Shown: positions 11,394-27,983, counted from the stretch's first letter. The stretch is 64,000 nucleotides of DNA from Oscillospiraceae bacterium (GCA_902795195.1 CADBKF010000008.1:17677-81676); one strand, 5' to 3'. Notes: generated by a model not told the origin, from the letters alone. Made by a program: numbers and translations.

Positions 11394-13144
11394 GCGTTTC
11401 CGACTCCTTTCTTTTCCTGTGCCTGCGGGAGCTTGCCGATCTCGCCGATCTGACTGTGTACCGTGATCATCGGCAGCAGAATCTCAACCGCCGTTCCGCC
11501 GGTCGCCTGCCGGGACAGCGCCACGCTGCCGCTGCCGCCGTAGAGCAGCTCGACCCGGTCGATGGCGTTTTGGATGCCGATGCCCAGGCTCGGGCAGATG
11601 GTACGGGTCTTCCGGAATTCCTCGATGCTCTCCAGCACCTCGTCGGAGATGCCGACTCCGGTGTCGGTCACCCGCAGCAGTAGCTGCCCGTCTGCGTTCT
11701 TTTCGGCGCTCACCCGGATCTCCACAACCGACTCGGGCAGCAGCGCGTATTTGATCGAGTTTTCCGCAAAGCTCTGCAGCAGCAGCGGCGGGATCAGGCA
11801 GTCGGAAAGATCCTCGTCGTATTCCACAACCGCCTCGAAGGTCTTGACAAAGCGGACCTTCTGGATCTCGAAATAGTTGCGCAAATGCTCCATCTCGTGG
11901 CCGAGGGGGACAAAATCCTGATAGGCGTTGACCACATATCTGAAATATCTGGACAGATACAGGATCATCCTCTGGATCAGCGGGTATTCTTCCTGCTCGT
12001 AGCTGTAGAGGATGTTCAGCGTGTTGAGAATAAAGTGCGGCTTGATCTGCTGGGCCAGGAAGCCCATCCGGATCTTCTGCGCCTTGAGCTGCTCCTCATA
12101 CACGCTGATTTTCAGCTCCTCCACCTGATCCATCATGTGGTTGAAGCTGCGGTTGATCCGGTTGAACTCAGTGCCCTGCTCCTTTTCCGGGATCCGGTAG
12201 TCCAGATCGCCGCCCTCCACGATGCCGATGGCCTTGTGAAGCCGTGAGACCGGGCCGACCATCCAGTGCTGGATCGCCAGCACCAGGATCGGCAGGGCGA
12301 TCAGCGCCGCAACGGACAGGATCTGCAGCAGCCGGATCGCAAACGGCAGTGAGCCGCTGATCTGCCGGTCCGGCACAAGCTCCAGCAAATACAGCTCCCC
12401 GGAGAAGGCCCTGGCTGTGGAAATCAGGTAGCTCTGCTTTCCGAGCTTGAGCCGCTCCGTACCCGGCTCGAGCTGCTCCGGCAGCGACGCGGTGGCAAAC
12501 AGAATGCTGCCGTCCCGGTCGGTAAAGGTAAGGATACGCCCTTCCTCCCGCGGGATCTGCTGGGCGAGACCTGCAAGCTCGATCCAGGCGCCGTACCAGA
12601 CATTCCGGTGTTTGCTCATGCTGACCAGTACGGCCCGGTCGTCCAGAGAGATCAGCTGCGTCCGCCGCCTTGGATTTTCAGGGTCGACGTTGATTGCCTC
12701 CAGGATCTTGCTGCGCACCTGGGAGCTTCGGTAGAAATCGCTCTGTGCAAACTGGTCCTTCTCAGGGAAATAGGCATAGAGTCCGCCGATCAGAAACTCG
12801 TCTTCTTTTTTCCTTCTCAGGCTCGACTTCAGATCCACCACGGACTGCAGCTGACGGTAGCGCTCCTCTTCGTTGTTGATCTCTTTGTCCCGCAGACGCA
12901 GATAGTCCGGATCGTCGATGGACAGAAGGGCCAGATAGGTGTCGGCCCGTTTTAAGGCGTCGTCGGCCAGCTTCAGGTAGAGCTCCAGCGTGTGCCGGAT
13001 CTCCATGGTGGTCTGCGCCTCGGCGTCCGCGATGACCCTCTGGCCGAGGACCAGCGTCAGCAGGTTCAGAGGGATCAGCACTGCAAAAATCAGAAACACA
13101 ACGCGGTTGATCCAGGAAGAAAAAAATCGTTTGATGTACTTCAC
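11390..13144 (-). CDS. sensor histidine kinase, YesM-like (TM - HAMP - His_kinase - HATPase)
   Basis: KPHFILNTLNILY block and a C-terminal HATPase (VTDTGVGISDE, GIGIQNAIDRVELLYG). Real start taken as GTG 13144 (VKYIKRFFSSW) with AAGGGGG 5 nt upstream. The remaining 238 upstream codons of the 823-aa tracked ORF run through repeats and antisense to the esterase gene. Confidence 0.85.
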   Translation of the reverse strand: MKYIKRFFSSWINRVVFLIFAVLIPLNLLTLVLGQRVIADAEAQTTMEIRHTLELYLKLADDALKRADTYLALLSIDDPDYLRLRDKEINNEEERYRQLQSVVDLKSSLRRKKEDEFLIGGLYAYFPEKDQFAQSDFYRSSQVRSKILEAINVDPENPRRRTQLISLDDRAVLVSMSKHRNVWYGAWIELAGLAQQIPREEGRILTFTDRDGSILFATASLPEQLEPGTERLKLGKQSYLISTARAFSGELYLLELVPDRQISGSLPFAIRLLQILSVAALIALPILVLAIQHWMVGPVSRLHKAIGIVEGGDLDYRIPEKEQGTEFNRINRSFNHMMDQVEELKISVYEEQLKAQKIRMGFLAQQIKPHFILNTLNILYSYEQEEYPLIQRMILYLSRYFRYVVNAYQDFVPLGHEMEHLRNYFEIQKVRFVKTFEAVVEYDEDLSDCLIPPLLLQSFAENSIKYALLPESVVEIRVSAEKNADGQLLLRVTDTGVGISDEVLESIEEFRKTRTICPSLGIGIQNAIDRVELLYGGSGSVALSRQATGGTAVEILLPMITVHSQIGEIGKLPQAQEKKGVGNA

Positions 13145-13163
13145 ACGCAGACCCCCTTGTTGA

Positions 13164-13200
13164 GTGAATAGAGAATAGAGAATAGAGAATAGGGAATAGG
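13164..13200. repeat. heptanucleotide tandem array, five in-phase units (GTGAATA GAGAATA x3 GGGAATA; minus strand CCTATTC/TCTATTC)
   Basis: Read directly. Exact 7-nt period. Confidence 0.9.
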
Positions 13201-13206
13201 AAAGGT

Positions 13207-13233
13207 ATTTTCCAAATCGGCGATTTGGAAAAT
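13207..13233. other. 27-bp near-perfect palindrome ATTTTCCAAATCG-G-CGATTTGGAAAAT in the kinase leader
   Basis: Read directly: 13-bp arms with a 1-nt centre. A second small hairpin GTCCC-GAA-GGGAC lies at 13245..13257. Confidence 0.85.
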
Positions 13234-13259
13234 GGATTGAAATCGTCCCGAAGGGACAC

Positions 13260-13294
13260 CGACAACTGACAACTGACCACTGGCCACTGACCAC
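13260..13294. repeat. heptanucleotide tandem array, five in-phase units (CGACAAC TGACAAC TGACCAC TGGCCAC TGACCAC; minus strand AGTGGTC type)
   Basis: Read directly. Exact 7-nt period. Confidence 0.9.
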
Positions 13295-13298
13295 TTCC

Positions 13299-13327
13299 AT
13301 TATAAATCGGATCCCCGGATTTGTCAA
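13299..13327 (-). promoter_or_regulatory. consensus sigma-70-type promoter for the yesM/yesN-like operon
   Basis: Minus strand TTGACA (13327..13322), 17-nt spacer, TATAAT (13304..13299). Both hexamers match the consensus exactly. Confidence 0.6.
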
Positions 13328-13348
13328 TTTTCGAGGGGGAGGTCGCGC

Positions 13349-13377
13349 TTGCATTCTTTGATTTTTTCTGATACAAT
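13349..13377 (+). promoter_or_regulatory. candidate promoter of the second carboxylesterase gene
   Basis: TTGCAT (13349..13354), 17 nt, TACAAT (13372..13377), about 50 nt upstream of ATG 13427. Confidence 0.5.
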
Positions 13378-13426
13378 CAGGATACGAAATAAACCGCGAT
13401 CCGCGCTGAACAAGGAGGACTTCCGC

Positions 13427-14998
13427 ATGAAACACACATTCCGCTGCGATGCAGGCACCGCGCTCATCAAGACCGAACGCGGCCTTGTCAAGGGCTACGA
13501 GCACGACGGCCTGCTGATCTTCAAGGGCATCCCCTATGCCAAAGCCAGACGCTTCCACGCGCCCGAGCCGGTCAAGCCCTGGGAAGGGGTGTTCGACGCC
13601 AGCAACTACGGCTTCGTCTGCCCGCTGCTCACAAACGACCGGCCGAACGGCGAGCTGCATGTGCCGCACCGCTTCTGGCCGATGGACGAGGACTGCCTGA
13701 ACCTGAACATCTGGACCCCCGGCACGGACGAAAAAAAGCGCCCCGTGCTGTTCTGGCTGCACGGCGGCGGCTATGAGGCCGGCTCCTCGATCGAGCATCT
13801 GGCCTACGACGGCGCAAACCTGAGCCGTCTGGGGGACGTGGTGGTCGTCTCGATCAACCACCGGCTGAACATCCTCGGCTACTTTGACCTCTCAGACTAC
13901 GGCGAGGAATACGTGAACTCCGGCAACGCCGGCGGAGACGATATCATCGCCGCGCTGCGCTGGGTGCACGAGAACATCGCCCCGTTCGGCGGCGACCCGG
14001 AGAACGTGACCGTCTTCGGTCAGTCCGGCGGCGGCGCCAAGGTCACGACGCTGCTGCAGTCACCGGCGGCGGACGGGCTCTACGCGAAGGGGCTTGTGAT
14101 GAGCGGCGTGATCGGTCCCGTGCTGTCAGACGCAGTCGGCAGCGGCCGCGATCTGGCCGAGGCCCTGATGGCGGAGCTCGGACTGCACGCGGTCAAGGAG
14201 CTCGAAACCGTGGACTACCATCTGCTGGCCGCGGCCTACCGGAAGGTCAAGCCTGCGCTGGAGAAGGCAGGCGCGTATACGGGCTGCCGGCCGCATCCCA
14301 ACGCGTTCTATCTGGGCGAGCCGGTCGCAAACGGCTTCCGGCCGGAGACGAAGGACATCCCGCTGCTGGTGGGAAGCGTCTTCGGCGAGTTCTCCTCGTT
14401 CCTGCCCAGCCCCTACGACCGCTCCAACATGAGCGAGCAGGCGCAGAAGGACGCGATTGTGGAGATGCTGGGGCAGGAAGGCGCAGACGAGCTGATCCCG
14501 CTGTTCCGCGCCGCCTATCCGGAGCGGCAGCTGATCGACCTGCTGCGGCTCGACTTCATTTTCCGTGGGCCGGAGATCCCCTACATCGCCGCGCGCAGCC
14601 GCCTGAACGACTGCACCTGGTCCTACCTGTTCAACATGGACCAGCCCATCGACGGCGGCAACACCCCCTGGCACTGCAGCGACATCCCGTATTTCTTCCA
14701 CAACCTCGACCTCGTGGAGTACCCCCACGGGCCGCAGGCGGACCCCGATCTGTCCGAACGGGTCGAAGCGCTGTGCGCAGGAAGCCTTCTGCGCTTTGCC
14801 CGGACCGGCGACCCCGCCGGAACGGCGCTCCCGGACTGGAAGCCGTGCCGGGATGGCGAGGAGCTGACGTTGCTGATCGACGAGAACCCCCGCGTTCTGC
14901 CGAATTTCGACCACAGCCTGCTCGAAGCGCACAGCCGCGTCATGGGCCCGGTCATGGCCAGGATCATGCAGGCGCTGCACGAAAACATCCAGCATTGA
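13427..14998 (+). CDS. type-B carboxylesterase (second copy)
   Basis: GIPYAKARRFHAPEP, WLHGGGYEAGS, GQSGGG. Start trimmed to ATG 13427 with AAGGAGGA at 13412..13419. Confidence 0.85.
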   Translation: MKHTFRCDAGTALIKTERGLVKGYEHDGLLIFKGIPYAKARRFHAPEPVKPWEGVFDASNYGFVCPLLTNDRPNGELHVPHRFWPMDEDCLNLNIWTPGTDEKKRPVLFWLHGGGYEAGSSIEHLAYDGANLSRLGDVVVVSINHRLNILGYFDLSDYGEEYVNSGNAGGDDIIAALRWVHENIAPFGGDPENVTVFGQSGGGAKVTTLLQSPAADGLYAKGLVMSGVIGPVLSDAVGSGRDLAEALMAELGLHAVKELETVDYHLLAAAYRKVKPALEKAGAYTGCRPHPNAFYLGEPVANGFRPETKDIPLLVGSVFGEFSSFLPSPYDRSNMSEQAQKDAIVEMLGQEGADELIPLFRAAYPERQLIDLLRLDFIFRGPEIPYIAARSRLNDCTWSYLFNMDQPIDGGNTPWHCSDIPYFFHNLDLVEYPHGPQADPDLSERVEALCAGSLLRFARTGDPAGTALPDWKPCRDGEELTLLIDENPRVLPNFDHSLLEAHSRVMGPVMARIMQALHENIQH

Positions 14999-15063: not shown

Positions 15064-15732
15064 ATGAAAATCACATACTGGTCGGATTACGCATGCCCCT
15101 ACTGCTACATCGGAGAGGCGAGATTGAAGAAGGCGATCTCGGAGCTTCCGGAGATCGGCGACGTAGAACTGGAGATGAAGGCGTTTCAGCTCGACCCCAC
15201 CGCAGGCGAGCACGCGACGGGCGATACTCTGACGCGATTTGCCCGCAAATACGGACTGTCGATGGAGCATGCCGCCCGGTCCATCGAGCATATCTCTCAG
15301 ATGGGCAGAGACGAAGGCCTTGATTTCAGATACGCAACGACGCTGTTCACAAACACGATGGACGCGCACCGTTTGACAAAGCTTGCGCAGAGCAAAGGCC
15401 CGGAAGCAGCAAACCGGGTGATCGAGGCGCTGTTCAAGGCGTATTTCACAGACAACAAAGAGCTGGCAGATCAAAAACTGCTGCAGCAGATCGGCGAGGA
15501 CTGCGGCTTGGACGCGGACGAAGTCAGGGCGCTTTTGACCTCGGATCAGTACCGGGAGGAAGTGCTCCTTGATGAACGCGAGGCGGCAAGATACGGCATC
15601 CACGCCGTTCCCTTCTTCGTCGTTGGGAAATACGGGATCCCCGGCGCCCTCAGTGTTGAAGATATGAAGAAAACGCTCCTGAAGGTCATGGAAGAAGATA
15701 CGGTTGGAGCTGAAAAAAGAAGGTACATGTGA
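15064..15732 (+). CDS. DsbA-family (FrnE-like) thiol oxidoreductase
   Basis: MKITYWSDYACPYCYIGE with a CPYC active site and C-terminal GIHAVPFFVV. Only the last 222 codons of the tracked 319-aa ORF are credible. Confidence 0.85.
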   Translation: MKITYWSDYACPYCYIGEARLKKAISELPEIGDVELEMKAFQLDPTAGEHATGDTLTRFARKYGLSMEHAARSIEHISQMGRDEGLDFRYATTLFTNTMDAHRLTKLAQSKGPEAANRVIEALFKAYFTDNKELADQKLLQQIGEDCGLDADEVRALLTSDQYREEVLLDEREAARYGIHAVPFFVVGKYGIPGALSVEDMKKTLLKVMEEDTVGAEKRRYM

Positions 15733-15797
15733 ACAGATCGGCGTGTCTTCTCGCTTTTCTTTCTGTGGTTTGGTACCTTTTAGCACGTCTTTCACAT

Positions 15798-15836
15798 AAA
15801 AACCGCTGGTTTTACTGCAAAATCAGCGGTTTTTTG
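15798..15836 (+). terminator. rho-independent terminator after the DsbA-like gene
   Basis: AAAACCGCTG ... CAGCGGTTTT stem followed by TTTG. Confidence 0.7.
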
Positions 15837-15946
15837 TGCTTTTCGAGCTAATTTTCGCTCGGTTTTCGTGGCTACGGTAACAAAACTGGTAACTGCACAA
15901 ATACATGGCTTACCAGTATTACTTTTATTACTTTTTTGTCTAAGCT

Positions 15947-16027
15947 ATTGATTTGTGCAATTATTTGAGTATAATAGATATTGAATTGTGCAATATAAGC
16001 TGTGATATTTAAATTGAATTGTGTATT
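15947..16027 (+). repeat. three 15-bp direct repeats (ATTGATTTGTGCAAT / ATTGAATTGTGCAAT / ATTGAATTGTGTATT) spaced exactly 33 bp apart
   Basis: Starts at 15947, 15980 and 16013. A TATAAT hexamer (15970..15975) lies between copies 1 and 2. Confidence 0.85.
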
Positions 16028-16068
16028 TTTCTATGTTTTGATTCTGTCGAAATGTGCGGGGGTGCATT

Positions 16069-17384
16069 ATGTTATATCGAAAAATCCAACCGTTTATTGA
16101 AGCCTATCTAAGATCTGATTCAAACAAGGTGCTAATCATCGATGGGGCACGGCAGATCGGGAAAACATTTATTATACGTCATGTCGGACAGCAGCTTTTC
16201 AAAAACTATATTGAGCTGAACTTTGCAGAGGATTATAACGGACCCAGGCTGTTTGAGCAGGTGCGCACGGTCAAGGATTTCTATTTCCAAGTCAGCACCG
16301 TCGCCGGTGATAAAATGGGAGATAAACAAAATACACTCATCTTCCTTGACGAGATCCAAGCATATCCCCATTTGTTGACCATGCTCAAATTTCTGAAACA
16401 AGATGACAGATATACCTACATTGCAAGCGGCTCTCTGCTGGGTGTGACCTTGAAAAAGACGACCTCCATTCCAATGAGGAATTTCTGCTGGCGAACGGAT
16501 TCAATCAGTTCGCGATCAATATGATGCGTGAGAAGTTCCTTGCCGGCGAGAGCCTGGATGTTGCTGCGCACGAAAAGGTGATGGATCTTTTCAAGAAATA
16601 CCTGTTAATCGGCGGGCTGCCCGACGCTGTAAACTCCTTTATTGCAGACACCAATATCGTGAAGGTGAGAACGATCCATCGTGATATTCGGGCGTTCTAT
16701 GCCGATGATGCGTCAAAGTATGAAGCTGACAATAACAGGAAACTGAAAATCCGCAGAATCTATGATATGATCCCCTCAAATCTGGAGAGCAAGAAGAAGC
16801 GGGTGGTCTTCCAGGAAATCGAGGACAAGCGTGGCAAGCGGTTTTCCGATTATCAGGATGAATTTGAATATCTGATTTCGGCGGGGATCGCACTGGACGT
16901 CAGCGCGATCACCACCCCCGTGTTTCCCCTTACGCAGTCCGTCGGCAAAAACCTGCTCAAGCTCTATTTGAACGATGTAGGTCTTTTGACCGATGTTTTG
17001 TACGGCAGCAATATCCGTGCGATCCTGGACGATGAGACCGGAATCAACCTCGGCTCTGTGTATGAAAGCGTGGTGGCCCAGGAGCTGGCAGCCCATGGCT
17101 ATAAGCTGTTCTACTACGATAACCGCAGCAAGGGCGAGGTGGATTACCTGATCGACGATTATGACAGCCTCTCCGCCGTCCCCATCGAGGTCAAGTCCGG
17201 CAAGGACTACACCGTTCACAGTGCGCTGAATACCTTCGTAAAGAACGACGACTATCGCGTGAAAAAGGCCTATGTGCTGTCCAATACCCGTGAGATCACA
17301 ACAAACGGCAAGATCACGTATCTGCCGATCTACGATGTGATGTTCTTCGGGGCGGGGGAGCAATCAAATGCTATCATAGGATAA
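16069..17384 (+). pseudogene. AAA-family ATPase (AAA_14 + DUF4143 type), disrupted by an internal deletion/frameshift near 16474-16480
   Basis: ORFs 16054..16524 and 16521..17384 are the two halves of one protein (Walker A DGARQIGKT, Walker B LIFLDEIQ, C-terminal GEVDYLI...PIEVKSG). After TTSIPM the frame breaks. The continuation EEFLLANGFNQFAINMMREKF is readable in another frame, and roughly 15 residues normally between these blocks appear to be missing (from memory of the family). Confidence 0.65.
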
Positions 17385-17520
17385 GAAGCAGAATAAACAA
17401 AGAGTAAAGAACGAAATAAGCTGCTTACTCAGTATGCGGACGATATCGGCAAGCGGCTGCAGCAGATGGAGCAGGAATGATCTCACACACGGCGCTTTCC
17501 CGCGCCGGAAAGGAGGGCTT

Positions 17521-19161
17521 ATGACAAAGCAACGAAAACACACGCTGCTGTTTCTCGGCTTTCTGCTGCTGGCAGGGGTCTGTCATTCCATGACGCGCAC
17601 AGGATATATGCTCATCGACACGCTGATGAACAGCGTCAGCAGCATGCTCTACCTCGGTCTGCTGCTGTTCTGGCTGATATCGGTGCAGCAGCGGCTGCTG
17701 ATCTCCAGCGCCAGAACCACCATTGTCTGGATCGTCCGGCTGATGATCGCCTGGCTGCTGACGCGAATCGTCGTATATGACTACAATGCCAGTACCTTGC
17801 TCGAGCGTTATCTCATTTATGCCTACTGGACGCCCCAGATGCTGATCCCGGCGCTGTTCTTGCTGCTCAGCCTGCAGATCCGGCAGGGCCACGCCGGGAA
17901 GCGCCGCCGGAACCCGGTGCTGGTGCTGATCCCGGGGGCAGTCTTCGCGCTGCTGGCCTGGACCAGCGACCTGCACCGGCTGATTTACCGGCCCACGGTC
18001 CCGCTTGCCTCCTTTCATGTAAAGACCGGCACCTACGGCTACGGCCCGCTGTTCTGGATCATGATGCTCTGGATGGGGCTGGCGGCTGCAACGGGCGTGG
18101 TCTTGCTGCTCCGGGAATCCGGGAATCGCAGCGCCAAGACAATCCGCCGGCTGCTGGGCATCGTGGGGCTCTGGATCGCCCTGGCGCTGCTGACGCTGCT
18201 GGTGCTGGACCGTCTGCCCATTCCCATCAAATTCTACGGCATGCCGGAGATCAATATTTTCTGTATGCTGGGCTTTCTGGAGATCTGCATCCGGGGCCGC
18301 CTGATCCCCTGCTATGAAAACTACGCCGGGTTCTTCTCCCGGCTGCAGAGCCCGGCGCTGATCACCGATCTGGCGCTGCACCCTGCCTTTGCAGCCGCCC
18401 GGACCCCGGAGGCGGACCGGGAAGCGCTGGAACAGGCCCTGCGCGCTCCCCTGCCCCTGACGGAGGATCTGACCCTCACCGGCAGAGCCGTTTCGGGCGG
18501 CTATGCCTTCTGGGTCGTCGATCAGAGCGCGGTGCACCGGGCGCAGGAGCAGCTTTCCGAGGCCAACGCGCTGCTCGAGCAGGAGAATGATCTCATCCGG
18601 GCAGAGACCGAGCAGCGGGAAAAGGACGCCTATCTGCGCTCCCGCCACCGAATCTACCACGAGATCGCCCAGGCGCTCTATCCCTGCCAGAAGCGGCTGA
18701 GCCGGCTGCTCGAGGCGGCCCGGCCCGGGACCGCGGCGTTCCGGGACCAGATCGCGCTGATCTGCGTGCTCAACGCCTATGTCAAGCGCAAGACGAATCT
18801 GCTGCTTCTGGCCGCCGAGCAGGAGCACATCAGCGCCCGTGAGCTGTTTCTTGCCCTGCAGGAGTCGGCCCGCTATCTGACGCTGGCCGGCCTGCAGACC
18901 ACCGTGGCCGAAGCGGCGGAGCGGCAGTTTGCCCCGGCGCAGGCCGTGGGGCTCTACGACGCCTTCGAGGCCCTGGCAGAGCAGCTCCTGGGCCGGGCCT
19001 CGGCGATGATGGTCTCCTGGAAGCCGGCTGGTCTGTGCCTGGCGGCCCAGACCGACGCTGCGCCGTCGTTGGAGGCCATCGCCCTGCCGGTACAGCTGCG
19101 GCGCGCCGAGGGGGCTCTTTACATGGACATTTTCTCAGAGGCAGGAGGTGCGGAAGCATGA
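17521..19161 (+). CDS. polytopic membrane sensor with degenerate histidine-kinase core (pseudo-kinase or DHp-only partner)
   Basis: ATG 17521 with AAGGAGGG upstream. About 7 TM helices in the first ~290 aa, a coiled coil, and a DHp-like LRSRHRIYHEIAQAL. The region where N/G boxes belong (GLYDAFEALAEQLLGRASAMMVSW...) lacks the Asn and Gly signatures. Confidence 0.7.
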   Translation: MTKQRKHTLLFLGFLLLAGVCHSMTRTGYMLIDTLMNSVSSMLYLGLLLFWLISVQQRLLISSARTTIVWIVRLMIAWLLTRIVVYDYNASTLLERYLIYAYWTPQMLIPALFLLLSLQIRQGHAGKRRRNPVLVLIPGAVFALLAWTSDLHRLIYRPTVPLASFHVKTGTYGYGPLFWIMMLWMGLAAATGVVLLLRESGNRSAKTIRRLLGIVGLWIALALLTLLVLDRLPIPIKFYGMPEINIFCMLGFLEICIRGRLIPCYENYAGFFSRLQSPALITDLALHPAFAAARTPEADREALEQALRAPLPLTEDLTLTGRAVSGGYAFWVVDQSAVHRAQEQLSEANALLEQENDLIRAETEQREKDAYLRSRHRIYHEIAQALYPCQKRLSRLLEAARPGTAAFRDQIALICVLNAYVKRKTNLLLLAAEQEHISARELFLALQESARYLTLAGLQTTVAEAAERQFAPAQAVGLYDAFEALAEQLLGRASAMMVSWKPAGLCLAAQTDAAPSLEAIALPVQLRRAEGALYMDIFSEAGGAEA

Positions 19162-20465
19162 CGATCCGAGACTTGCTGGTTTCCCGGAATGTGCCGGTGA
19201 TGACGCTTCTGCTGCTGCTCTTGAGCGCGCACATGCTGCTGATCCTCTTATCCCAGCACTACAAACGGGGCCGGGTCCGCGTGTGCCTGTATGTGCTCCA
19301 TGGGCTGTTCAGCTTTCTGGGCGCCTATCTTCCGCTGATGAATCTGCTTTGGTCCATTGAATTTACTGTGAAAAGGACAGGGCCAACGGCGGCCATCGCG
19401 GCCTTCGGCGCGCTTCCTGCCGCGATCGTTCTGGTCTATGAGGCCGCGACGCTCCTGATCCTTACAGCCTGCTTTGTGGAACTGCAGCACGACCGCCGGA
19501 CGCATCCGTCCTCAGACAGCATCCAGCAGGCCATGGACCTGCTGCCCACCGGCATTGCCATTGGCAGAGCCGACGGGACGGTGGCGTACTGCAACCAGAG
19601 CATGCACAGCCTGGCCCGGCAGTGCACCGGCCGGGGGCTGCATGATCTGTCCCTCCTGCAGGATGCCTGCGGCGAGGCCGGTGAGGCCCGGCTCAGCGTG
19701 CCGGACGGCTCCGCCGTCTGGCAGCTGACCAAGCAGCGCCTGCGCCTGGATGAGGAAGACTATCTCCAGTTCACGGCCGAGGAGATCACCGAGCAGGCCC
19801 GCATTTTGCAGGATCTGGAGCGCAAGCACGAGCGGCTGTTGAAGCTGCGCCGTCGGCTGGAGCTATACAACCGGCAGGCCGACCGGCTGATCATCGCCCA
19901 GGAGCTGCTCAGCGCCCGGATGGAGGTCCACAGCGCGGTGGGCAACGTGCTGCTCGAGGGCCAGCGCTATCTGCGCGGCACGGCCTCCATTGACGAGCAG
20001 CGGCTGCTGCAGTCGCTCCGATACACCAACGCCGTGCTCCTGCGGGAATATGAGCAGGACGACTCCGACCGCGACGCGCTGGCCGAGGCGCTGGAGGCCG
20101 CGGAGATTTTGGGTGTGGACGTGTCGGTCACCGGCCGCTTCCCGGATTCCGAGCCCTTCCGGGGCATTCTCGCGGCGGCCATCCGGGAATGCGCCGCCAA
20201 CACCGTCAAGCACGCCGACGGCGACCGCCTGCGCGTGGACATCCTCGACGATCCCGGCGGCGGCAGGCGCTATCTGCTGCGCTCGAACGGCACCGCGCCG
20301 GCAGGACCCATCCGGGAATCCGGCGGCCTGCTGGCCCTGCGAAGCCTGGTCGGGCGCTGGGGCGGAACGATGACCGCCCAGGCAGGCCAGGGACCGGATT
20401 GTGCCTTCTGCCTGCAGCTTGCGATTCCCGGCGATCCGGATGAAATTGGGCCGGTTGGCCCATGA
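19158..20465 (+). CDS. sensor histidine kinase (TM - PAS-like - HisKA_3-like - HATPase)
   Basis: ATG 19158 overlaps the preceding stop (ATGA), with AGGAGG at 19143..19148. PAS-like IQQAMDLLPTGIAIGRADGTVAYCNQSMHSL, H-box-like LSARMEVHSAVGNVLL, N-box IRECAANTVKHADG, G-box-like ESGGLLALRSLVGRWGGTM. Confidence 0.8.
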   Translation: MTIRDLLVSRNVPVMTLLLLLLSAHMLLILLSQHYKRGRVRVCLYVLHGLFSFLGAYLPLMNLLWSIEFTVKRTGPTAAIAAFGALPAAIVLVYEAATLLILTACFVELQHDRRTHPSSDSIQQAMDLLPTGIAIGRADGTVAYCNQSMHSLARQCTGRGLHDLSLLQDACGEAGEARLSVPDGSAVWQLTKQRLRLDEEDYLQFTAEEITEQARILQDLERKHERLLKLRRRLELYNRQADRLIIAQELLSARMEVHSAVGNVLLEGQRYLRGTASIDEQRLLQSLRYTNAVLLREYEQDDSDRDALAEALEAAEILGVDVSVTGRFPDSEPFRGILAAAIRECAANTVKHADGDRLRVDILDDPGGGRRYLLRSNGTAPAGPIRESGGLLALRSLVGRWGGTMTAQAGQGPDCAFCLQLAIPGDPDEIGPVGP

Positions 20466-20490
20466 CAAGCCCTGCCGATTCCGATATAAT
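20462..20490 (+). promoter_or_regulatory. candidate internal promoter at the end of the kinase gene
   Basis: ATGACA (20462..20467), 17 nt, TATAAT (20485..20490). Confidence 0.45.
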
Positions 20491-20551
20491 GGAATGGGAC
20501 AGGCGATGGTTTTTGCTCAATGGCCCGAATCAAACAGGGCAAACAGCGAGA

Positions 20552-20593
20552 AAAGGGCATCTGTCCGACATACGGGCGGATGCCCTCTTTTTC
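20552..20593 (+). terminator. terminator-like hairpin between kinase and regulator genes
   Basis: AGGGCATC (20554..20561) pairs with GATGCCCT (20579..20586), followed by CTTTTTC. Confidence 0.5.
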
Positions 20594-20623
20594 TACCAGA
20601 TTTCAGAGAGGACGGCGTTTGCT

Positions 20624-21265
20624 TTGGATGAGAAATACAAGGTCCTGATCGTGGACGACCAGTATGTGGCGCGCGGCTTTTTTGAGCTGCAGGTGGACAT
20701 GCTGCGGCGCTATGCGCTGGCGGCCTCCCTGTCCAGCGCCGAGCAGGCCGTGAGCTGGTGCATGGAGCACCCGGTCGATCTGGTGATTATGGATGTGGTC
20801 ATGAAATACGGCCTGAGCGGCCTGACCTGCGCCAAGACCATCAAGAACAACCACCCGCGGATCAAGGTCATTCTGACCACCTCTACCGCCGAAGCCCGAT
20901 GGATCGAGAAGGCGAAGCAGGCCGGCATCGAGGGCTTCTGGTTCAAGGAGTATTCCGGGCTCCCCCTCTCGGAGGTCATGGATCGGGTCATGGCGGGCGG
21001 CACCGTCTATCCCGAGGCGTTACCCAATCCGGAGTTCGGCGACGTGCGCAAGCTCGATCTGTCCCAGCGGGAGCTGGAGGTGCTCGGCGAGCTGACCCGG
21101 AACCTCACCAACGAGGAGATTGCGGCAAACATCGGTCTGTCCCCGAAGACCGTGAAGCGCCACATTGAAAACCTGCTGGCGAAAACCGGCTACAAAAACC
21201 GCATCGACCTGGCCGTCAACGCAAGACTCCTGGGCCTGGTGGTGCATGAGGACGAAGAGGCATAA
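20624..21265 (+). CDS. LuxR/NarL-family response regulator
   Basis: KVLIVDDQ...VIMDVVM receiver and a C-terminal LSQRELEVLGELTRNLTNEEIAANIGLSPKTVKRHIENLLAKTG HTH. Start set at in-frame TTG 20624. The 54 upstream codons of the tracked ORF (from ATG 20462) use many rare A/T-ending codons and contain the hairpin, so they are probably leader. The alternative start 20462 is not excluded. Confidence 0.8.
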   Translation: MDEKYKVLIVDDQYVARGFFELQVDMLRRYALAASLSSAEQAVSWCMEHPVDLVIMDVVMKYGLSGLTCAKTIKNNHPRIKVILTTSTAEARWIEKAKQAGIEGFWFKEYSGLPLSEVMDRVMAGGTVYPEALPNPEFGDVRKLDLSQRELEVLGELTRNLTNEEIAANIGLSPKTVKRHIENLLAKTGYKNRIDLAVNARLLGLVVHEDEEA

Positions 21266-21315: not shown

Positions 21316-23634
21316 ATGAAACGTACGCTATCCATTTTCCTGTGTCTTGTGATGCTGCTGGGCATTCTGCCGCTGACGGCGTTTGCCGCTACGACCATCA
21401 CAGTCATCTCCCCGTACATTCCCGACAAGTATCTTCCCTACATCGGCAGGAATGCAAGCGCTGCCGTGAGCAGCAGCTATAATTCCAATTACATCAGCAT
21501 TTATGACTCGGAATGCTATGCTTCTGCTGCTGTATGGAAGGACAATGCATTCAACAACTTCACCGGCCAGTTCGAGGAAGACCCCGCCTACTGTCTGGTG
21601 CTGACGCTGAAGGCAAACTCCGGCTATGTCTTCGGTGACAAGTCCGTCACCTCCATGGACTATGACGACTGCAGAGGCTACGAATATGTGAAACGGAGCA
21701 ACACCGAGGCCGAGCTCCGCATCTGGTTTGACTCCATTCGGGTCTATACCAACCTTGCAAACTATTTCGGCTCGGAATATTCCGGCTTTATCCCGAAGGT
21801 GGAGGCCCCGTCGATCCCCACGACGGACATGACGAAGGACCAGTATCTGGCCCAGGTCAAGCTCAGCGCGGAGGACAGCAAGTATCTGACCCTGACGGAC
21901 CTCGATCTGGACGGCATTTTCAGCGACAGCAACAAGTTCCAGTCCGGAGAGACATATATGGTCTCCTTCAGCCTGGAGGTCAAGGAGGCAATGAAGACGC
22001 AGGCCAGGTTTGACCCGGAGCTGAGCGTCGTGGCCGTGGAATACGGCAATGTGTTCCAGGAGGTGGGCTACTACCCCTTTACCGATTCTGCCTACTTTGC
22101 CTTTAACCTCAACGACGTCGTTGATCGGGTCACGAAGGTGAGCATCAGCGGCCTTGAACGGCCGGTGGTCGGGTCGGCGCCGCAGACCACGGGCTTTACG
22201 ATCGACAACGACAATCTCGAGCTGCGCTTTGACAGCTGGCGGGAGCAGGGCGGCGGCAGCGTCTCCGTCTTCCAGGAGGGCAAGACCTATCTCCTGCGGC
22301 TGCTTCTGAGCGCGAAGGATGTGAACACCGAAATTGCGATCCCCGGTCCCAGCGGCGTCTGGACCAACGCCGGTTCTGTGATTGCGGCCGGCTTCCCCGA
22401 GGTCGGTAACTTCTATGTGGACATTCAGTTCAAGGTCGGCGCCGACATGGGCACGTACACCTTTGATCTCAGCGCCGGTCCGGCGGAATATGTACCGAAC
22501 AGCGATGTATCATATGGCTGGTTTATCGTGCTGCTCGGAGGCTACGTCGATTACAAAGACAGCAAGGTCGACCTGGACAAGGACGGCATTTACGACCTTG
22601 AGCTGTTTAAGGAAGACGATACCCAGTACCTCCGGGTCCTGGACGGCACCAAGCTCTCCGGCACATACGTGATCGACTTCTCGGACAACCAGGCGGTGCA
22701 AAACCTTCTGTCCAGCGGCGGGAATGTCTACACCTCCTTCACCTTTATCTTCCCCGGAGAACCGACGCCCGGCAAGGATCTGGGCAACTATGTCTTTGAT
22801 TTCAGCAAGGGCGATCTGCTGTTTGACGTTACGCAGCTCTGCTGGAGAGAATTGAGAGACCTGGTCAATGGCGGATTCATTCCCTACAGCTCAAGTAATA
22901 TCGACCTCGACGGTGACGGTCGCTTCGACCTCCAGCAGTACAAGTCCCATTCCAACTGGTATCTCAAGCCCCATCCCGACACCAACATCAAAGACAATTA
23001 CACCTTTATCCTGCTGCAGGCGGCCAAGGACCTGTACAAGGACGGCGAGCCCTACTATTCCTCGCTCACCTTCAAGTTCACCAGTGCGCCGATCAACCCC
23101 TTCGTGGACGTCAAGGAAGGCGCCTACTACTATGACGCGGTGCTCTGGGCGGTGAATCACGACCCGCAGATCACCAACGGCGTCGACCCCACCCACTTCG
23201 GCCCCGGCCAGAACTGCACCCGCGGCCAGGTCGTGACCTTCCTCTGGCGCGCGCTCGGCAGCCCGGAGCCCGTCAGCAGCTCCACGCCCTTCACCGACGT
23301 TTCGGCCACGGCCTACTACTACAAGGCCGTCCTCTGGGCCGTGGAGAAAGAGATCACCAACGGTCTCTCGACCACGAGCTTCGGCCCCGGCAGGAGCTGC
23401 ACACGCGGCCAGGTCGTGACCTTCCTCTGGCGCACTGCAGGCAAGCCGGCGGTCACCGGCAGCAACCCCTTCACCGATGTGAAGTCCACCGATTACTACT
23501 ATGAGGCCGTCCTCTGGGCCGTGAAAAACAACGTGACCAACGGCATGAGTGCCACCACGTTCGCCCCCGCTCAGACCTGCACCCGCGGCCAGATCGTCAC
23601 CTTCCTCTACCGCGCCTTCGGCCCCAAGGGCTGA
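21316..23634 (+). CDS. secreted cell-surface protein with three C-terminal SLH domains
   Basis: Signal peptide MKRTLSIFLCLVMLLGILPLTAFA, GGAGGA RBS, and 3 x SLH (FVDVKEGAYYYDAVLWAV...TRGQVVTFLWRA). The N-terminal ~590 aa have no family I recognise. Confidence 0.85.
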   Translation: MKRTLSIFLCLVMLLGILPLTAFAATTITVISPYIPDKYLPYIGRNASAAVSSSYNSNYISIYDSECYASAAVWKDNAFNNFTGQFEEDPAYCLVLTLKANSGYVFGDKSVTSMDYDDCRGYEYVKRSNTEAELRIWFDSIRVYTNLANYFGSEYSGFIPKVEAPSIPTTDMTKDQYLAQVKLSAEDSKYLTLTDLDLDGIFSDSNKFQSGETYMVSFSLEVKEAMKTQARFDPELSVVAVEYGNVFQEVGYYPFTDSAYFAFNLNDVVDRVTKVSISGLERPVVGSAPQTTGFTIDNDNLELRFDSWREQGGGSVSVFQEGKTYLLRLLLSAKDVNTEIAIPGPSGVWTNAGSVIAAGFPEVGNFYVDIQFKVGADMGTYTFDLSAGPAEYVPNSDVSYGWFIVLLGGYVDYKDSKVDLDKDGIYDLELFKEDDTQYLRVLDGTKLSGTYVIDFSDNQAVQNLLSSGGNVYTSFTFIFPGEPTPGKDLGNYVFDFSKGDLLFDVTQLCWRELRDLVNGGFIPYSSSNIDLDGDGRFDLQQYKSHSNWYLKPHPDTNIKDNYTFILLQAAKDLYKDGEPYYSSLTFKFTSAPINPFVDVKEGAYYYDAVLWAVNHDPQITNGVDPTHFGPGQNCTRGQVVTFLWRALGSPEPVSSSTPFTDVSATAYYYKAVLWAVEKEITNGLSTTSFGPGRSCTRGQVVTFLWRTAGKPAVTGSNPFTDVKSTDYYYEAVLWAVKNNVTNGMSATTFAPAQTCTRGQIVTFLYRAFGPKG

Positions 23635-23680
23635 GTCTGACAAAACATAAGGCAGGAGCCCCGGCTCCTGCCTTATCTTG
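23095..23680 (+). repeat. direct repeat copy A (3xSLH coding region plus terminator)
   Basis: Collinear with 27398..27983 at a constant offset of 4303 nt. About nine of ten positions are identical in the stretches I compared by eye. Confidence 0.85.
23649..23680 (+). terminator. rho-independent terminator
   Basis: AAGGCAGGAGC-CCCG-GCTCCTGCCTT followed by a T-rich tail. Confidence 0.7.
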
Positions 23681-23704
23681 ATTTCCATGAAAGGATGGAT
23701 ACAT

Positions 23705-26700
23705 ATGAAACGATGGCTGTCACTTCTTCTCTGCCTGGTGCTGCTGATGTCACTGATGCCGCAGATGGCGCTCTTTGGTGCGGCCGAGGGCGGGCTTCCG
23801 GACCTTCCCAATCTGAAGATCAGCTCCGGCGGGCTGGTCACCTGGGATGAATACCCCGGCGCGGTTTACTACTATGTCTACGCCGACGTATATTGGGACA
23901 TGATCCGCATCGAAGCAGATCAGCCCCGCCGGGTGAACCTGGCCCAGCTTCTGACCGACGGCTACGCCCCCAACGGCACCTATACGCTGCAAATCTCCGC
24001 CGAGGACGCCGAGCACTTCGACATTGCCCTGTCCAGCGTCACCTACACATACACCAACGGCCTTGCGCCGCTGCCCGCCCCGGCAAATCTGCGCTGGGAG
24101 GGCTGTGAGGCGGTGTGGGATGCGGTGGAGGGCGCGTCAAACGGCTACGTCGTGACCCTGCGCAGCGCCTCCGGCGACTACACGATCGGCACCTGGAATG
24201 TCGACGAGCCCCGCTTCGACTTTTCCGATTACATTGTGTATCAGGAGACGCAATACGAGTTCCGCGTCTGTGCCAGGGGCTGCCCCAACGGCGCAAGGAG
24301 CGCCGAGGTCACCTCGCCCTCGCGGCCTGGCCGCTTCACGATGGTCGAATTCCTGCTGGATCTGAGCGGCGACTACATGTACACAGATCCCGACCCTGTG
24401 AAGGACTCCGAGGGCAACCCGATCGACCGCTACTACCTCTATCAGGCGGACGTCAACCCCGCCCAGCTGCCGCGCAGCCGCTACGCCACCGCGAGGCTCA
24501 ATCTGCGCGATCTTCTGTATCACATCAATGCGCCTGCGGGCGAATACCACTACTGGATGGGGGGCGAAAACGCCGAGGGCATGACGGTCACCAAGGAGAG
24601 CAACACCGTCAGCTATGACTACAGCCCCTATCCCGAGGCGCCCATCCAGTTCACCGGTTGGAGCTGTCCCGAGGACTGGCTGGAGGAAGTCCGCATGGAC
24701 GACATGACGGTCTACTCCTATGAGACCTTCCAGGTCCGCCAGGGCGTCAACACCTACTTCACCGTCGTCCCCGATGCGCGGCACACCATCACCGGTCTGC
24801 GGCTGAAATACGGCGGCGAGATCCACGACGATCCCGCCCGCGTCGGCAAGATGAGCACGCTCGAGGACGGCACCACCGGCTTCTGGGTGCTGCCGCCGGA
24901 CGAGGACTTCTCCATCGTCATCGATCAGGAGCGCATCTATCAGCCCCTGACCTCGGCCACGCTGCACTACGACACCACGGCCGGGCAGCCGGTCTATCAC
25001 GGCATCAGCTCCGACGAGGGCTGCTATACCTACCTCTTCAATGTGCTCGACGAAGAGGGCTTCACCTATGAGTGGCTGCTGCCCGGCAAGACCTACACCC
25101 TGGCCTTCGAGCTGAATGCGCCGAGCTACTACCGCTTCACCGAGGACGCGACCATCACCGTCAACGGCACGCCCGCCACAGTGATCAAATGGGCGGACAA
25201 CGGCGACCGGCTCTACGTCAATTACACGTTCACCGTGCCCCAGGCCGGCAGCGTCACCCTGACAGACAGCAGCAGCTATCCCAGGCTGAATCTGACCATC
25301 GACAGCAATGGCTACGCCACATGGGACAGCTTTGCCGGCGCCGCAAAGTATTATATCAGCTCCAGCGCAGGCGACGGCGAGCACCACACCGAGATCGGCT
25401 ATGACGTCAAGGCCAAGCTCGACGAGTGGAACGCCCCCACCGGCTGGTACACGCTGACCGTCGAGGCCGAGGACGCCGAGAACAGCACGCTCGCCTACGA
25501 CTACGCGGCCTACTACCACCAGGGCCTCGACCGGCTTCCCGCGCCGACGAACCTCCGCTGGGACGGCACCGTGGCCCGCTGGGACCCCGTGGAGGGCGCA
25601 AATCAGTATTATGTGGCGCTCTATGAGATGGACCGCTGCAGCCAGGTCAGCTACAAATGGGTCAGCGAGCCGGAATATGACTTTGCAGGCAGCCTCGTGA
25701 ATCAGGACACGCCCTATGCCTTCCACGTCTTCGCGTCCGGGGATACGGAGACTGCAGCGACAAGCGTCCTCTCCCCCTTCTCCCCGATCCGATACGGCCG
25801 CTTCGCCTACGGGCCGATCACGCTGACGCTCAGCGGCGATCTGGCGAGCTGGGACGCCTACACCGACACTGAGGGCCAGCTTGCGGCGTACTACTATGTG
25901 TCGATCTCGAGTTCGGAAAACTATTATGACTCCTACTTCCACACCACCGCGCTCAACCTGCGGCAGATTCTTGAGATGCTGGACGCACCCGACGGCGACT
26001 ATGAGGTCTGGGTCCATGCCTATAACGCCGAGTGGATCACCGTGTCCAAGGAAAGCAACACCGAGATCTACCACTACGCCGCTGACACCGGCCGCAGCAC
26101 CGTGCAGCTGACCGGCTGGCACTACGGCGGCGAGGCCACCAGCCACAGCGGCCTGGACGACGTCTTTATCAACAACCTGGACTACCGGGGCGGCAGAATC
26201 ACGCTCAACGTCGGCGAGACCGCCCGAGTGGAGCTGAAGCCCTATGAGCGCTACCGGATCACAAACGCCTGGCTGCGCTGCGGTGACGAGGACCGCGAGT
26301 TCCCGCTCACGCAAAAGCCTGACGGCAGCGCAACGGGCAGCTTCACGGTGCCGGACACGGACTTTGAGCTGATCCTCCGCAGCGAGTACATACTGCAGGA
26401 AATCCCTGCCATCGAGGTCAGCTTCGACGAGACGCCCGGCACATTGCTGGCGCAGACGGCCCTGGATCTGCCCGAGGGCACCAACTACACCGCCAGCATC
26501 TCCGGCATCAGCGGCCCCCACGGCGGCGGCAACACCCACCTGCGCCCCGGCGGGAGTTACATCGTGAGCCTCAGCTTCTATGCAAACTCCGACTACAAGT
26601 TCACAAGCGGCACGACCGTCACGGTCAACGGCCACAGCGTCAGCCTGGAGGATCTGAGTGAGGACGGCCGCTACTGCTACGCCACATACAGCTTCCAGGT

Positions 26701-27937
26701 CTCCTCCGAAATTAGCAGGATCACCGTGCGCGGCGTCAAGGCCCCAGCCGTCGACGAGCTGCCCGAGCTGAACCTGACGGCCGATGGAGGCGACCCCTAC
26801 CGCATCGACTGGGACAACACCAGATGGTACCGCGTGGAGAGCGAAGGCTCCTGGATACGGATGCAGGACGGCGAGGCCTTTGTCCCGGACACTGCCTACG
26901 TGCTGCAGGTAGCCTACGATCCCGCGGAGGACTGCACCTGGGCCGAGACCGTCGAGGCAGTGACCGACCTGGACGAGAGCGACCTCGGGAAGATCGACTA
27001 CATCTTTGTTGGCGACGGCTCCGGCCTGCCGAACAAGCCGAAGATCGTCGAAATCCATTTCAAGCCCTTCACCGCGGGCACGCTGATCGAGCGCGTGGAC
27101 ATCTACTGCACAAAGCCCGTGGGCGGCGCCCACCCGGATCAGCACCCCACCGTCGCAACCGACGCGCCCTACACCGTGACATTCGTCTCCTGGTATCTGT
27201 GCCAAGCGCCCTATCCGCATGTGGAGGCAGACGGCACCTTTACTGCCGGCAGCAGATACGCCCTGCGCGTCGAGATCACGCCGAAGCCCGGCTATCGCTT
27301 CAATGACGCTACGCAGTTCTTCTGCAACGGCGATCCCGCCCATGGCCGATACGGATCCTATGGCAATATGGAGTTCCGCTGGACCGCGGCGGCGGCCAAC
27401 CCCTTCGTGGACGTCAAGGAGGGCGCCTTCTACTATGACGCGGTGCTCTGGGCGGTGAACGCCGATCCGCAGATCACCAAGGGCGTCGACGACACCCACT
27501 TCGGGCCAAACCAGAACTGCACCCGCGGCCAGGTCGTGACCTTCCTCTGGCGCGCGGTCGGCAGCCCGGAGCCCGCCAGCAGCTCCACGCCCTTCACCGA
27601 CGTCTCCGCCACGGCCTTCTACTACAAGCCCGTGCTCTGGGCGGTGGAGAACGAGATCACCAACGGCCTCTCACCCACGAGCTTCGGCCCCGGCAGAAGC
27701 TGTACGCGCGGCCAGGTGGTCACCTTCCTCTGGCGCACCGCGGGCGAGCCGGCAGTCAGCGGCAGCAACCCCTTCACCGACGTGAAGTCCACCGATTATT
27801 ACTATTCCGCCGTGCTCTGGGCTGTGGAGAACAACGTGACCAACGGCCTGAGCGCCACCACCTTCGGGCCCGCCCGGACCTGTACCCGCGGCCAGATCGT
27901 CACCTTCCTCTACCGCGCCTTCGGTCCCAAGAGCTGA
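23705..27937 (+). CDS. giant secreted modular surface protein (Fn3-like modules) with three C-terminal SLH domains
   Basis: MKRWLSLLLCLVLLMSLMPQMALFGAAEG signal peptide (start trimmed to ATG 23705). Repeated LPAPxNLRW(E/D)G...W(D)xVEGA Fn3-like blocks. The C-terminal 3 x SLH is nearly identical to that of the preceding gene. Confidence 0.85.
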   Translation: MKRWLSLLLCLVLLMSLMPQMALFGAAEGGLPDLPNLKISSGGLVTWDEYPGAVYYYVYADVYWDMIRIEADQPRRVNLAQLLTDGYAPNGTYTLQISAEDAEHFDIALSSVTYTYTNGLAPLPAPANLRWEGCEAVWDAVEGASNGYVVTLRSASGDYTIGTWNVDEPRFDFSDYIVYQETQYEFRVCARGCPNGARSAEVTSPSRPGRFTMVEFLLDLSGDYMYTDPDPVKDSEGNPIDRYYLYQADVNPAQLPRSRYATARLNLRDLLYHINAPAGEYHYWMGGENAEGMTVTKESNTVSYDYSPYPEAPIQFTGWSCPEDWLEEVRMDDMTVYSYETFQVRQGVNTYFTVVPDARHTITGLRLKYGGEIHDDPARVGKMSTLEDGTTGFWVLPPDEDFSIVIDQERIYQPLTSATLHYDTTAGQPVYHGISSDEGCYTYLFNVLDEEGFTYEWLLPGKTYTLAFELNAPSYYRFTEDATITVNGTPATVIKWADNGDRLYVNYTFTVPQAGSVTLTDSSSYPRLNLTIDSNGYATWDSFAGAAKYYISSSAGDGEHHTEIGYDVKAKLDEWNAPTGWYTLTVEAEDAENSTLAYDYAAYYHQGLDRLPAPTNLRWDGTVARWDPVEGANQYYVALYEMDRCSQVSYKWVSEPEYDFAGSLVNQDTPYAFHVFASGDTETAATSVLSPFSPIRYGRFAYGPITLTLSGDLASWDAYTDTEGQLAAYYYVSISSSENYYDSYFHTTALNLRQILEMLDAPDGDYEVWVHAYNAEWITVSKESNTEIYHYAADTGRSTVQLTGWHYGGEATSHSGLDDVFINNLDYRGGRITLNVGETARVELKPYERYRITNAWLRCGDEDREFPLTQKPDGSATGSFTVPDTDFELILRSEYILQEIPAIEVSFDETPGTLLAQTALDLPEGTNYTASISGISGPHGGGNTHLRPGGSYIVSLSFYANSDYKFTSGTTVTVNGHSVSLEDLSEDGRYCYATYSFQVSSEISRITVRGVKAPAVDELPELNLTADGGDPYRIDWDNTRWYRVESEGSWIRMQDGEAFVPDTAYVLQVAYDPAEDCTWAETVEAVTDLDESDLGKIDYIFVGDGSGLPNKPKIVEIHFKPFTAGTLIERVDIYCTKPVGGAHPDQHPTVATDAPYTVTFVSWYLCQAPYPHVEADGTFTAGSRYALRVEITPKPGYRFNDATQFFCNGDPAHGRYGSYGNMEFRWTAAAANPFVDVKEGAFYYDAVLWAVNADPQITKGVDDTHFGPNQNCTRGQVVTFLWRAVGSPEPASSSTPFTDVSATAFYYKPVLWAVENEITNGLSPTSFGPGRSCTRGQVVTFLWRTAGEPAVSGSNPFTDVKSTDYYYSAVLWAVENNVTNGLSATTFGPARTCTRGQIVTFLYRAFGPKS

Positions 27938-27983
27938 CCCCCAAAAAACAAAAGGCAGGAGCCCCAGCTCCTGCCTTTCGTTC
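27398..27983 (+). repeat. direct repeat copy B (3xSLH coding region plus terminator)
   Basis: See copy A. Confidence 0.85.
27950..27978. terminator. bidirectional terminator between the SLH gene and the DUF2812 gene
   Basis: AAAAGGCAGGAGC-CCCA-GCTCCTGCCTTTC, with an A-run on one side and a T-run on the other. Confidence 0.7.

Follow-up and report, generated by a model that had tools for sequence, protein, structure and literature searches.

A putative membrane pseudo-kinase gene overlapping a DesK-like kinase gene, with a NarL-type regulator and giant surface protein genes, in gut and rumen Clostridia

We analyzed a stretch of 64,000 nucleotides from the genome of an Oscillospiraceae bacterium (GCA_902795195.1 CADBKF010000008.1:17677-81676), here called the window and numbered from its first letter. 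An earlier interpretation, made from the DNA alone and referred to below as the sequence-only reading, had singled out positions 17521-21265 as a three-gene sensory module, in which a pseudo-kinase with seven transmembrane (TM) segments is translationally coupled to a PAS histidine kinase, with a LuxR regulator directly upstream of two large SLH surface proteins. The three genes are the following:

17521..19161, + strand: gene 1, 546 aa, predicted membrane pseudo-histidine-kinase
19158..20465, + strand: gene 2, 435 aa, predicted PAS kinase with a DesK-like ATP-binding domain
20624..21265, + strand: gene 3, 213 aa from a TTG start, NarL/LuxR-type response regulator

The start of gene 1, ATG 17521, is preceded by the ribosome-binding site GGAAAGGAGGG, and the N-termini of its homologs align there. 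Genes 1 and 2 overlap by 4 nt: the ATGA at this junction contains the stop of the former and the start of the latter. Both genes are named 'hypothetical protein' wherever a source names them, and in the literature we found no description of the trio, only analogs (RocA, RetS, ChpT and the 'incomplete' archaeal kinases).

Gene 1 matches a single Pfam family, HisKA_7TM (PF16927; residues 47-234, E = 8e-11, 42.7 bits versus a cut-off of 28.6). We used 118 sequences to build an AlphaFold2 model of the protein, with a mean predicted local distance difference test (pLDDT) value of 81, and of 85-93 over residues 380-540. The model has eight membrane helices (residues ~1-260), a small PAS-like domain of alpha/beta type (268-334), a long helix or coiled coil, a hairpin (371-399 and 407-433) like that of the DHp domain of kinases (for dimerization and histidine phosphotransfer), and finally an alpha/beta domain (439-538) resembling the catalytic and ATP-binding (CA) domain, without the ATP lid helix. 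Eight TM segments with both ends in the cytoplasm also fit the hydrophobicity profile and the positive-inside rule. When the models were compared, the elements of the CA-like domain were found in the same order as in the ATP-binding domain of gene 2, minus the lid helix. Thus, the polytopic N-terminal domain of the sequence-only reading stands, with eight helices and not seven.

The same reading had described gene 1 as catalytically dead, its ATP-domain segment lacking the N-box Asn and the G-boxes. Alignment and model agree with this description: no N-box, G1 or G2 box was found in the C-terminal domain in an alignment of homologs, and the model has no lid helix. Neither HisKA nor HATPase families were detected in gene 1 in Pfam, and NCBIfam returned nothing. 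Likewise, ten of the ten distant family members that we checked carried HisKA_7TM at most, and no HATPase domain. In structure searches with Foldseek, the best match of the gene 1 model was the phosphotransferase ChpT (4qpk, 4qpj; E = 4e-3), followed by the cores of CpxA, DesK, QseC and EL346; the membrane part gave weak, generic 7TM receptor matches. Searches of solved structures with the single sequence, with a profile of 25 sequences or with a profile of the C-terminal module found no kinase, and a profile-profile comparison of gene 1 with gene 2 showed no similarity. By these sequence comparisons, an origin of gene 1 as a duplicate of gene 2 is not detectable.

A scan of species-representative genomes yielded 67 loci (cited below by L numbers), all from metagenome-assembled genomes (MAGs) of rumen or gut Clostridia and assigned to Oscillospiraceae, Lachnospiraceae, Christensenellales and Erysipelotrichaceae. 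In essentially all related loci with enough sequence, the three genes are syntenic. Gene 2 follows gene 1 wherever the contig permits, with L032 as the single exception, and at least 36 of the 59 gene 1-gene 2 junctions have the 4-nt start/stop overlap, several more having ATGA or GTGA at the stop. Almost every locus has gene 3 close by, the sole long locus without it being L029. Gene order varies: gene 3 and a giant gene are upstream of gene 1-gene 2 in L018 and L024, and in L026 the place just upstream of gene 1 is taken by gene 3. Two sub-units are therefore stable: gene 1 plus gene 2, and gene 3 beside a giant gene. That both sub-units survive the permuted order of L018 and L024 is in favor of an accessory pseudo-kinase acting with its partner kinase, the reading developed below.

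In three Lachnospiraceae loci (L045, L046 and L048), two giant genes of ~1,200-1,370 aa, without a Pfam match, are found between gene 2 and gene 3, at ~13000-20800 in L045. Some loci also carry a second, ~25% identical trio, arranged in tandem in L045 (88-3748 and 10001-21531) and divergently in L057 (6069-9425 on the - strand, and 10001-13854). Several MAGs have two separate loci, with L012/L019, L013/L053 and L021/L064 among the examples. The cassette is multiplied within genomes.

Could gene 1 be independent of gene 2, for instance a transporter-like membrane protein that is merely co-expressed with a two-component system? The weak and generic fold matches of its membrane domain would be in line with this idea, but the overlap and the strict adjacency to gene 2 persist across the family down to ~25% identity, and the cytoplasmic half of gene 1 has a predicted kinase-core-like fold. 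We find such independence very doubtful. Rather, the sequence comparisons and the model support gene 1 as a non-catalytic look-alike of a kinase, in a tight and conserved pairing with a kinase-type partner.

Two sites in the DHp-like hairpin of gene 1 bear on what this look-alike may do:

18646..18660, + strand: motif SRHRIYHEIAQAL (HRIYH, His376 and His380 of gene 1), in DHp helix 1
18784..18798, + strand: KRKTN of gene 1, in DHp helix 2; K422 and R423 invariant family-wide, N426 nearly so

The His-containing helix described in the sequence-only reading is thus present, but the His is not a feature of the family. In the close clade of the window's gene 1, H376 is found in 117 of 118 homologs and H380 in 115 of 118, while distant syntenic copies have N/D, G/R, N/A, T/E or A/S at positions 376/380. 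A profile of the C-terminal module of gene 1 matched 1,916 representatives at E <= 1e-3, and 1,409 at E <= 1e-10, in a library of clusters at 50% identity. We aligned the 122 sequences longer than 450 residues among the best 150 of the 1,916 representatives. In this alignment N prevails at position 376 and D at position 380, and 86 of the 122 representatives have no His anywhere in DHp helix 1. E448, together with K422 and R423, is invariant family-wide, and Y379, N426 and E487 are nearly so. Two members from the His-less part of the family are each found in a trio of the same make-up, with all three genes overlapping.

Because the His is absent from most of the family, phosphotransfer cannot be the function of the gene 1 family; possibly, it is a clade-specific addition at most. 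It is because the His is clade-specific that we regard gene 1 as a pseudo-kinase and not as a phosphotransfer protein. Only one receiver, that of gene 3, is encoded per trio across the loci. The role of phosphotransfer partner that the sequence-only reading had offered for gene 1 is therefore disfavored, the His being absent from most of the family and an intermediate receiver being absent from the locus. A phosphorelay was rejected on the same two counts, lack of conservation of the gene 1 His and lack of a second receiver. In the close clade only, H376 and H380 may have a phospho-accepting or metal-binding role. His376 and His380 are spaced i/i+4 on one face of the helix, and are His only in this clade (N or D elsewhere); that such a pair on a dimerizing helix forms a metal site is speculation.

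A split kinase, restricted to this clade, would make use of these histidines: the ATP domain of gene 2 would phosphorylate His376 or His380 of gene 1 within a DHp heterodimer, and gene 1 would pass the phosphate to the regulator. Such an arrangement would be similar to the three-protein system HK1/HK2/TcrA of Mycobacterium tuberculosis, or to a phosphotransferase of the ChpT kind. It agrees with the near-invariance of both residues in the close clade, with ChpT being the top fold match of gene 1 and with the tight coupling of genes 1 and 2. Nevertheless, most of the family retains the same trio without a His in the helix, gene 2 retains an invariant His of its own (His258, see below) and the locus encodes no intermediate receiver domain. 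We consider a split kinase unlikely.

Alternatively, gene 1 could act on the phosphorylated regulator as its dedicated phosphatase or sink, docking it on the DHp-like helices and so opposing the kinase activity of gene 2. In canonical kinases, phosphatase activity requires only the DHp domain, and the DHp is the most conserved part of gene 1, with K422, R423, N426 and Y379 invariant or nearly so. The motifs associated with this activity are E/DxxT/N in HisKA and DxxxQ in HisKA_3 proteins. However, gene 1 has neither of them beside a conserved His, and it shows no profile similarity to the DHp of any kinase. This alternative is, in our view, improbable.

The AlphaFold2 model of gene 2 (pLDDT 87) begins with three TM helices, whose outer loop has 24 residues, and a PAS domain (residues 119-209); then come a long helix with His258 (codon 19929-19931), the second helix of the DHp and a CA domain of compact form (307-423). 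Foldseek matched the model to PAS-kinases (YF1, E = 5e-14) and to DesK (E = 3e-10), with E values in the range 5e-14 to 1e-9, and a profile of the gene 2 family matched the ATP-binding domains of DesK, DevS, DosT and VraS, with a best E of 1.9e-8 for the CA domain of DesK. All 116 relatives have H258 and the G2-box residues G389, G390 and L391; E344, H352 and R395 are likewise invariant, and the N-box residue N348 and K351 are found in 115 of the 116. H258 is also kept in distant relatives, and the H-box resembles H-x-x-x-G-Q/N. In Pfam, the window's gene 2 has no HATPase_c or HisKA_3 match, and only a few of its homologs carry PF02518. The following site departs from the canonical core:

20283..20291, + strand: non-canonical G1 box of gene 2, S-N-G instead of D-x-G

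The G1-box Asp contacts adenine in canonical GHKL proteins. The corresponding position 376 of gene 2 aligns with the first D of the SDDG of DesK. Among the 116 relatives it is S in 62, N in 32, G in 12, T in 9 and D in 1, so that 115 of 116 have another residue instead of the Asp; relatives of 24-36% identity have N there. By sequence, gene 2 is classed as a HisKA_3-type kinase with one systematic departure from the canonical core, at the G1 Asp. The conservation of the N-box, K351, H352, the G2-box and R395 argues for a working nucleotide pocket under selection, and Asn or Ser at the G1 position could hydrogen-bond adenine. The coordinates and the ATGA overlap of gene 2 are as the sequence-only reading had given them, but the kinase core that it called complete has the G1 Asp replaced and no Pfam HATPase_c match. 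Similarly, its pairing of a dead sensor with a live kinase is borne out for the non-catalytic gene 1 and for the conservation of the pairing, and is qualified by the non-canonical G1 box for the partner.

A further possibility is that neither protein is an ATP-dependent kinase. The phosphate on the regulator would then come from a different kinase or from a small donor, acetyl phosphate for example; gene 1 and gene 2 would form a signal-controlled phosphatase only. The replacement of the G1 Asp in 115 of the 116 relatives as well as in distant ones, and the lack of a Pfam HATPase_c match in the window's gene 2, speak for this explanation. Yet the N-box Asn, K351, H352, the G2-box and R395 are invariant or nearly so, pointing to selection on the nucleotide pocket, and the Asn or Ser at the G1 position may still contact adenine. 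A complex of this kind seems to us very improbable.

Gene 3 matches Response_reg (E = 1e-16) and GerE (E = 4e-15) in Pfam, in agreement with its earlier assignment as a LuxR regulator. D11, D12, D57, T86 and K108 are each conserved in at least 95% of 42 orthologs; the receiver is thus predicted from its sequence to be phosphorylation-competent and to need a donor. In several Lachnospiraceae loci, gene 2 goes with a pair of paralogous NarL-type regulator genes. They are adjacent in L031, L035 and L041, and in L038 the second copy is 5.6 kb off, on the opposite strand, past a giant gene.

The start of gene 3 was assigned by comparison with L001, the closest relative of the window. Over positions 20466-20623 the two sequences differ by indels of 8, 18, 34, 11 and 4 nt, not all of them multiples of three, and to judge by this alignment the segment behaves as non-coding. 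The ATG of the L001 regulator aligns with TTG 20624, which has GAGAGGA upstream. TTG 20624, giving a protein of 213 aa, is most likely the start of gene 3; a start at ATG 20462 was rejected on the L001 comparison. With the start at 20624, there is therefore no translational coupling of gene 3 to gene 2. Two features were found across the end of gene 2 and the spacer:

20462..20490, + strand: promoter-like site ATGACA-17 nt-TATAAT, overlapping the gene 2 stop, 11/12 consensus positions
20554..20593, + strand: 14-bp GC-rich hairpin followed by a T-run, terminator/attenuator-like, ~60 nt past the promoter-like site

The TATAAT block is kept in L001 while the remaining spacer diverges. In comparison with shuffled sequence, the leader of gene 3 has a much better fold (z = -4.19); no Rfam family matches it. 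L001 has a hairpin as well, and strong hairpins are found at the same position in about a dozen related loci; the scan across loci admits short stems, and only the ~12 stems of at least 9 bp are meaningful. The leader may be an attenuator.

Rumen metatranscriptome contigs map, at a depth of 2-7, to parts of genes 1, 2 and 3 and of the first SLH gene. The locus is probably transcribed in vivo; the contigs are too sparse to define transcription units or what the hairpin does.

Downstream of gene 3, the window has two surface protein genes:

21316..23634, + strand: first SLH protein gene, 772 aa, secreted
23678..27937, + strand: second SLH protein gene, ~1,410 aa, secreted; likely start ATG 23705

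The first of these genes starts 50 nt after gene 3, with no terminator predicted in between, and its product has a signal-peptide-like N-terminus. Among the related loci, 38 extend 1.5 kb or more past gene 3. In these we scored same-strand open reading frames (ORFs) starting within 1.5 kb, counting an ORF as giant from 800 aa upwards, or from 400 aa when cut by a contig end. A giant ORF follows gene 3 in at least 23 of the 38 loci, and 18 of those ORFs have a signal-peptide-like start; ORF maps add several further cases beyond the 23. The idea that the three genes and the surface genes form a single unit, put forward in the sequence-only reading, finds support in this count. The domains of the giant proteins vary by locus (BspA-type LRR_5, Listeria-Bacteroides repeats, Big_3, Ig-like, CBM_X2, DUF6273, SLH, or none recognized), and SLH genes are near the trio in three loci only (L001, L050 and L065). 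A specific linkage of the trio to SLH proteins was rejected for this reason. The expected synteny is hence found among the three genes themselves but not, beyond those three loci, with SLH genes; the real link of the trio is to giant secreted surface proteins with variable domains, not to SLH as such.

Overall, we favor a reading in which the partner kinase of an accessory pseudo-kinase, the two being fixed in one operon, acts on a NarL-type regulator, and this in turn controls the giant gene next to it. We rate this somewhat better than an even bet. Through the 4-nt start/stop overlap, gene 1 and gene 2 would be made in fixed proportion, and they would presumably form one sensor complex. Gene 1 would supply a membrane or ligand input, whatever the signal, via its eight TM segments and PAS-like domain, and would set the balance between gene 2's kinase activity and its phosphatase activity via contacts of the membrane and DHp-like helices. 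Gene 2, as a membrane PAS kinase of the DesK/HisKA_3 type, would autophosphorylate on His258, and the phosphate would pass from His258 to Asp57 of gene 3. Phosphorylated gene 3 would then drive its own unit, from the promoter-like site over the end of gene 2 through the hairpin leader into the giant gene or genes, its putative regulon.

Several observations weigh against this interpretation. The match of gene 1 to kinase-core folds is weak (E of 4e-3 to 5e-2; TM-score by target 0.3-0.46), and H376 and H380 are nearly invariant within the window's own clade. The kinase activity of gene 2 is not assured, because the G1-box Asp is missing. The metatranscriptome contigs, besides being sparse, are unstranded and may include DNA. 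Finally, the contact between gene 1 and gene 2 is a putative one.

It also seems possible to go one step further. The trio could represent a large unrecognized class of sensor kinases, obligately heteromeric, from Clostridia of gut and rumen (~1,900 clusters at 50% identity), made of a His-less, ATP-blind 8-TM pseudo-kinase as the input subunit and a DesK-like catalytic subunit with Ser/Asn in place of the adenine-contacting Asp, possibly with altered nucleotide recognition, and serving as a dedicated on/off switch for an adjoining giant adhesin-like protein. We put this forward tentatively, and would sooner bet against it than for it.

Among the closest known systems, RocA of Streptococcus pyogenes is a six-TM pseudo-kinase that binds the sensor kinase CovS in the membrane, and its DHp His is dispensable (PMC7028121). 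The likeness of gene 1 to RocA is one of architecture only: a polytopic membrane N-terminus, a DHp and a degenerate CA domain, together with a dispensable His. Unlike gene 1, which overlaps its kinase gene and goes with a NarL-type regulator, RocA is encoded away from covRS, an OmpR-type system; also, RocA has the DHp His, whereas most gene 1 family members have lost it. In Pseudomonas aeruginosa, RetS, acting on GacS, and LadS combine a 7TM-type receptor with a kinase-like cytoplasmic part, as in gene 1, and modulate another kinase by direct contact (PMC4866733). RetS, however, is a hybrid kinase of a Gram-negative bacterium, with receivers and a periplasmic domain, and is encoded apart from its target, whereas gene 1 has no receiver or recognizable ATP motifs.

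ChpT has a DHp and a CA-like domain, has lost the ATP lid and cannot autophosphorylate (PMC3433190; PDB 4qpk, 4qpj, 4fmt). It is, with Spo0B, the best fold match of gene 1, for which a DHp-like hairpin and a lid-less CA-like domain are likewise predicted. In contrast, ChpT is soluble and acts between receivers in a phosphorelay via the essential His33, while gene 1 is predicted to be membrane-bound, belongs to a family mostly without the His and has no extra receiver. With a His that is not conserved and a single receiver in the trio, gene 1 does not fall within the ChpT/Spo0B type.

For gene 2 and gene 3, the nearest counterparts are DesK/DesR and other HisKA_3/NarL-type pairs (PDB 3ehg, 5iuj, 7ssj), which gene 2 resembles in its CA domain by profile and in its core by fold, and gene 3 in its receiver and GerE domains. 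Gene 2 differs from DesK in the Ser/Asn that replaces the G1 Asp, in the inserted PAS domain and in the pseudo-kinase gene that overlaps its start. With three TM helices and a 24-residue outer loop, gene 2 also looks like an intramembrane-sensing kinase, a kind that needs accessory membrane proteins. In LiaFSR (PMC10269926) and BceRS-AB, a kinase with minimal extracellular loops relies on a co-encoded membrane partner for input. LiaS of LiaFSR is a HisKA_3 kinase with a NarL-type regulator. Here the partner differs in having a predicted kinase-like fold, and is neither of the LiaF type nor an ABC transporter. On the best reading, this unannotated cassette would work like the accessory pseudo-kinase systems known elsewhere.

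The cassette is common in gut Clostridia, often with more than one copy per genome and usually beside adhesin-like giant genes. Since standard kinase models miss both sensor genes, two-component censuses of rumen and gut Clostridia would leave it out. If the favored model is true, the cassette offers a way into the switching of the largest surface proteins in fibre-associated gut bacteria, a natural pseudo-kinase/kinase pair fixed in an operon and suited to structural work on heteromers, and a test of whether a GHKL kinase works without the G1 aspartate.

In both SLH proteins of the window, three C-terminal SLH domains are the sole Pfam matches; their N-terminal regions have none, as the sequence-only reading had anticipated. 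The C-terminal SLH regions (23056-23628 and 27308-27931) share 80-86% protein identity and the N-terminal parts are unrelated, which fits a repeated SLH anchor cassette. The second SLH gene is flanked by terminator-like hairpins, at 23647-23676 and 27951-27978. For its product, ATG 23705 (MKRWLSLLLCLV..., signal-peptide-like after M10) is a likelier start than TTG 23678, which abuts the hairpin at 23647-23676. Elsewhere in the window, positions 50975-51283 have a weak SLH-like similarity to both surface proteins (30%, E ~1e-3).

Upstream, the module adjoins an AT-rich islet, as noted before, with a GC content of 0.42-0.52 across 15500-17500 versus 0.60-0.68 nearby. The following gene lies in this islet, outside the module:

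16054..17384, + strand: split AAA_14/DUF4143 ATPase gene

The gene consists of two overlapping ORFs and looks like a decayed gene of foreign origin.

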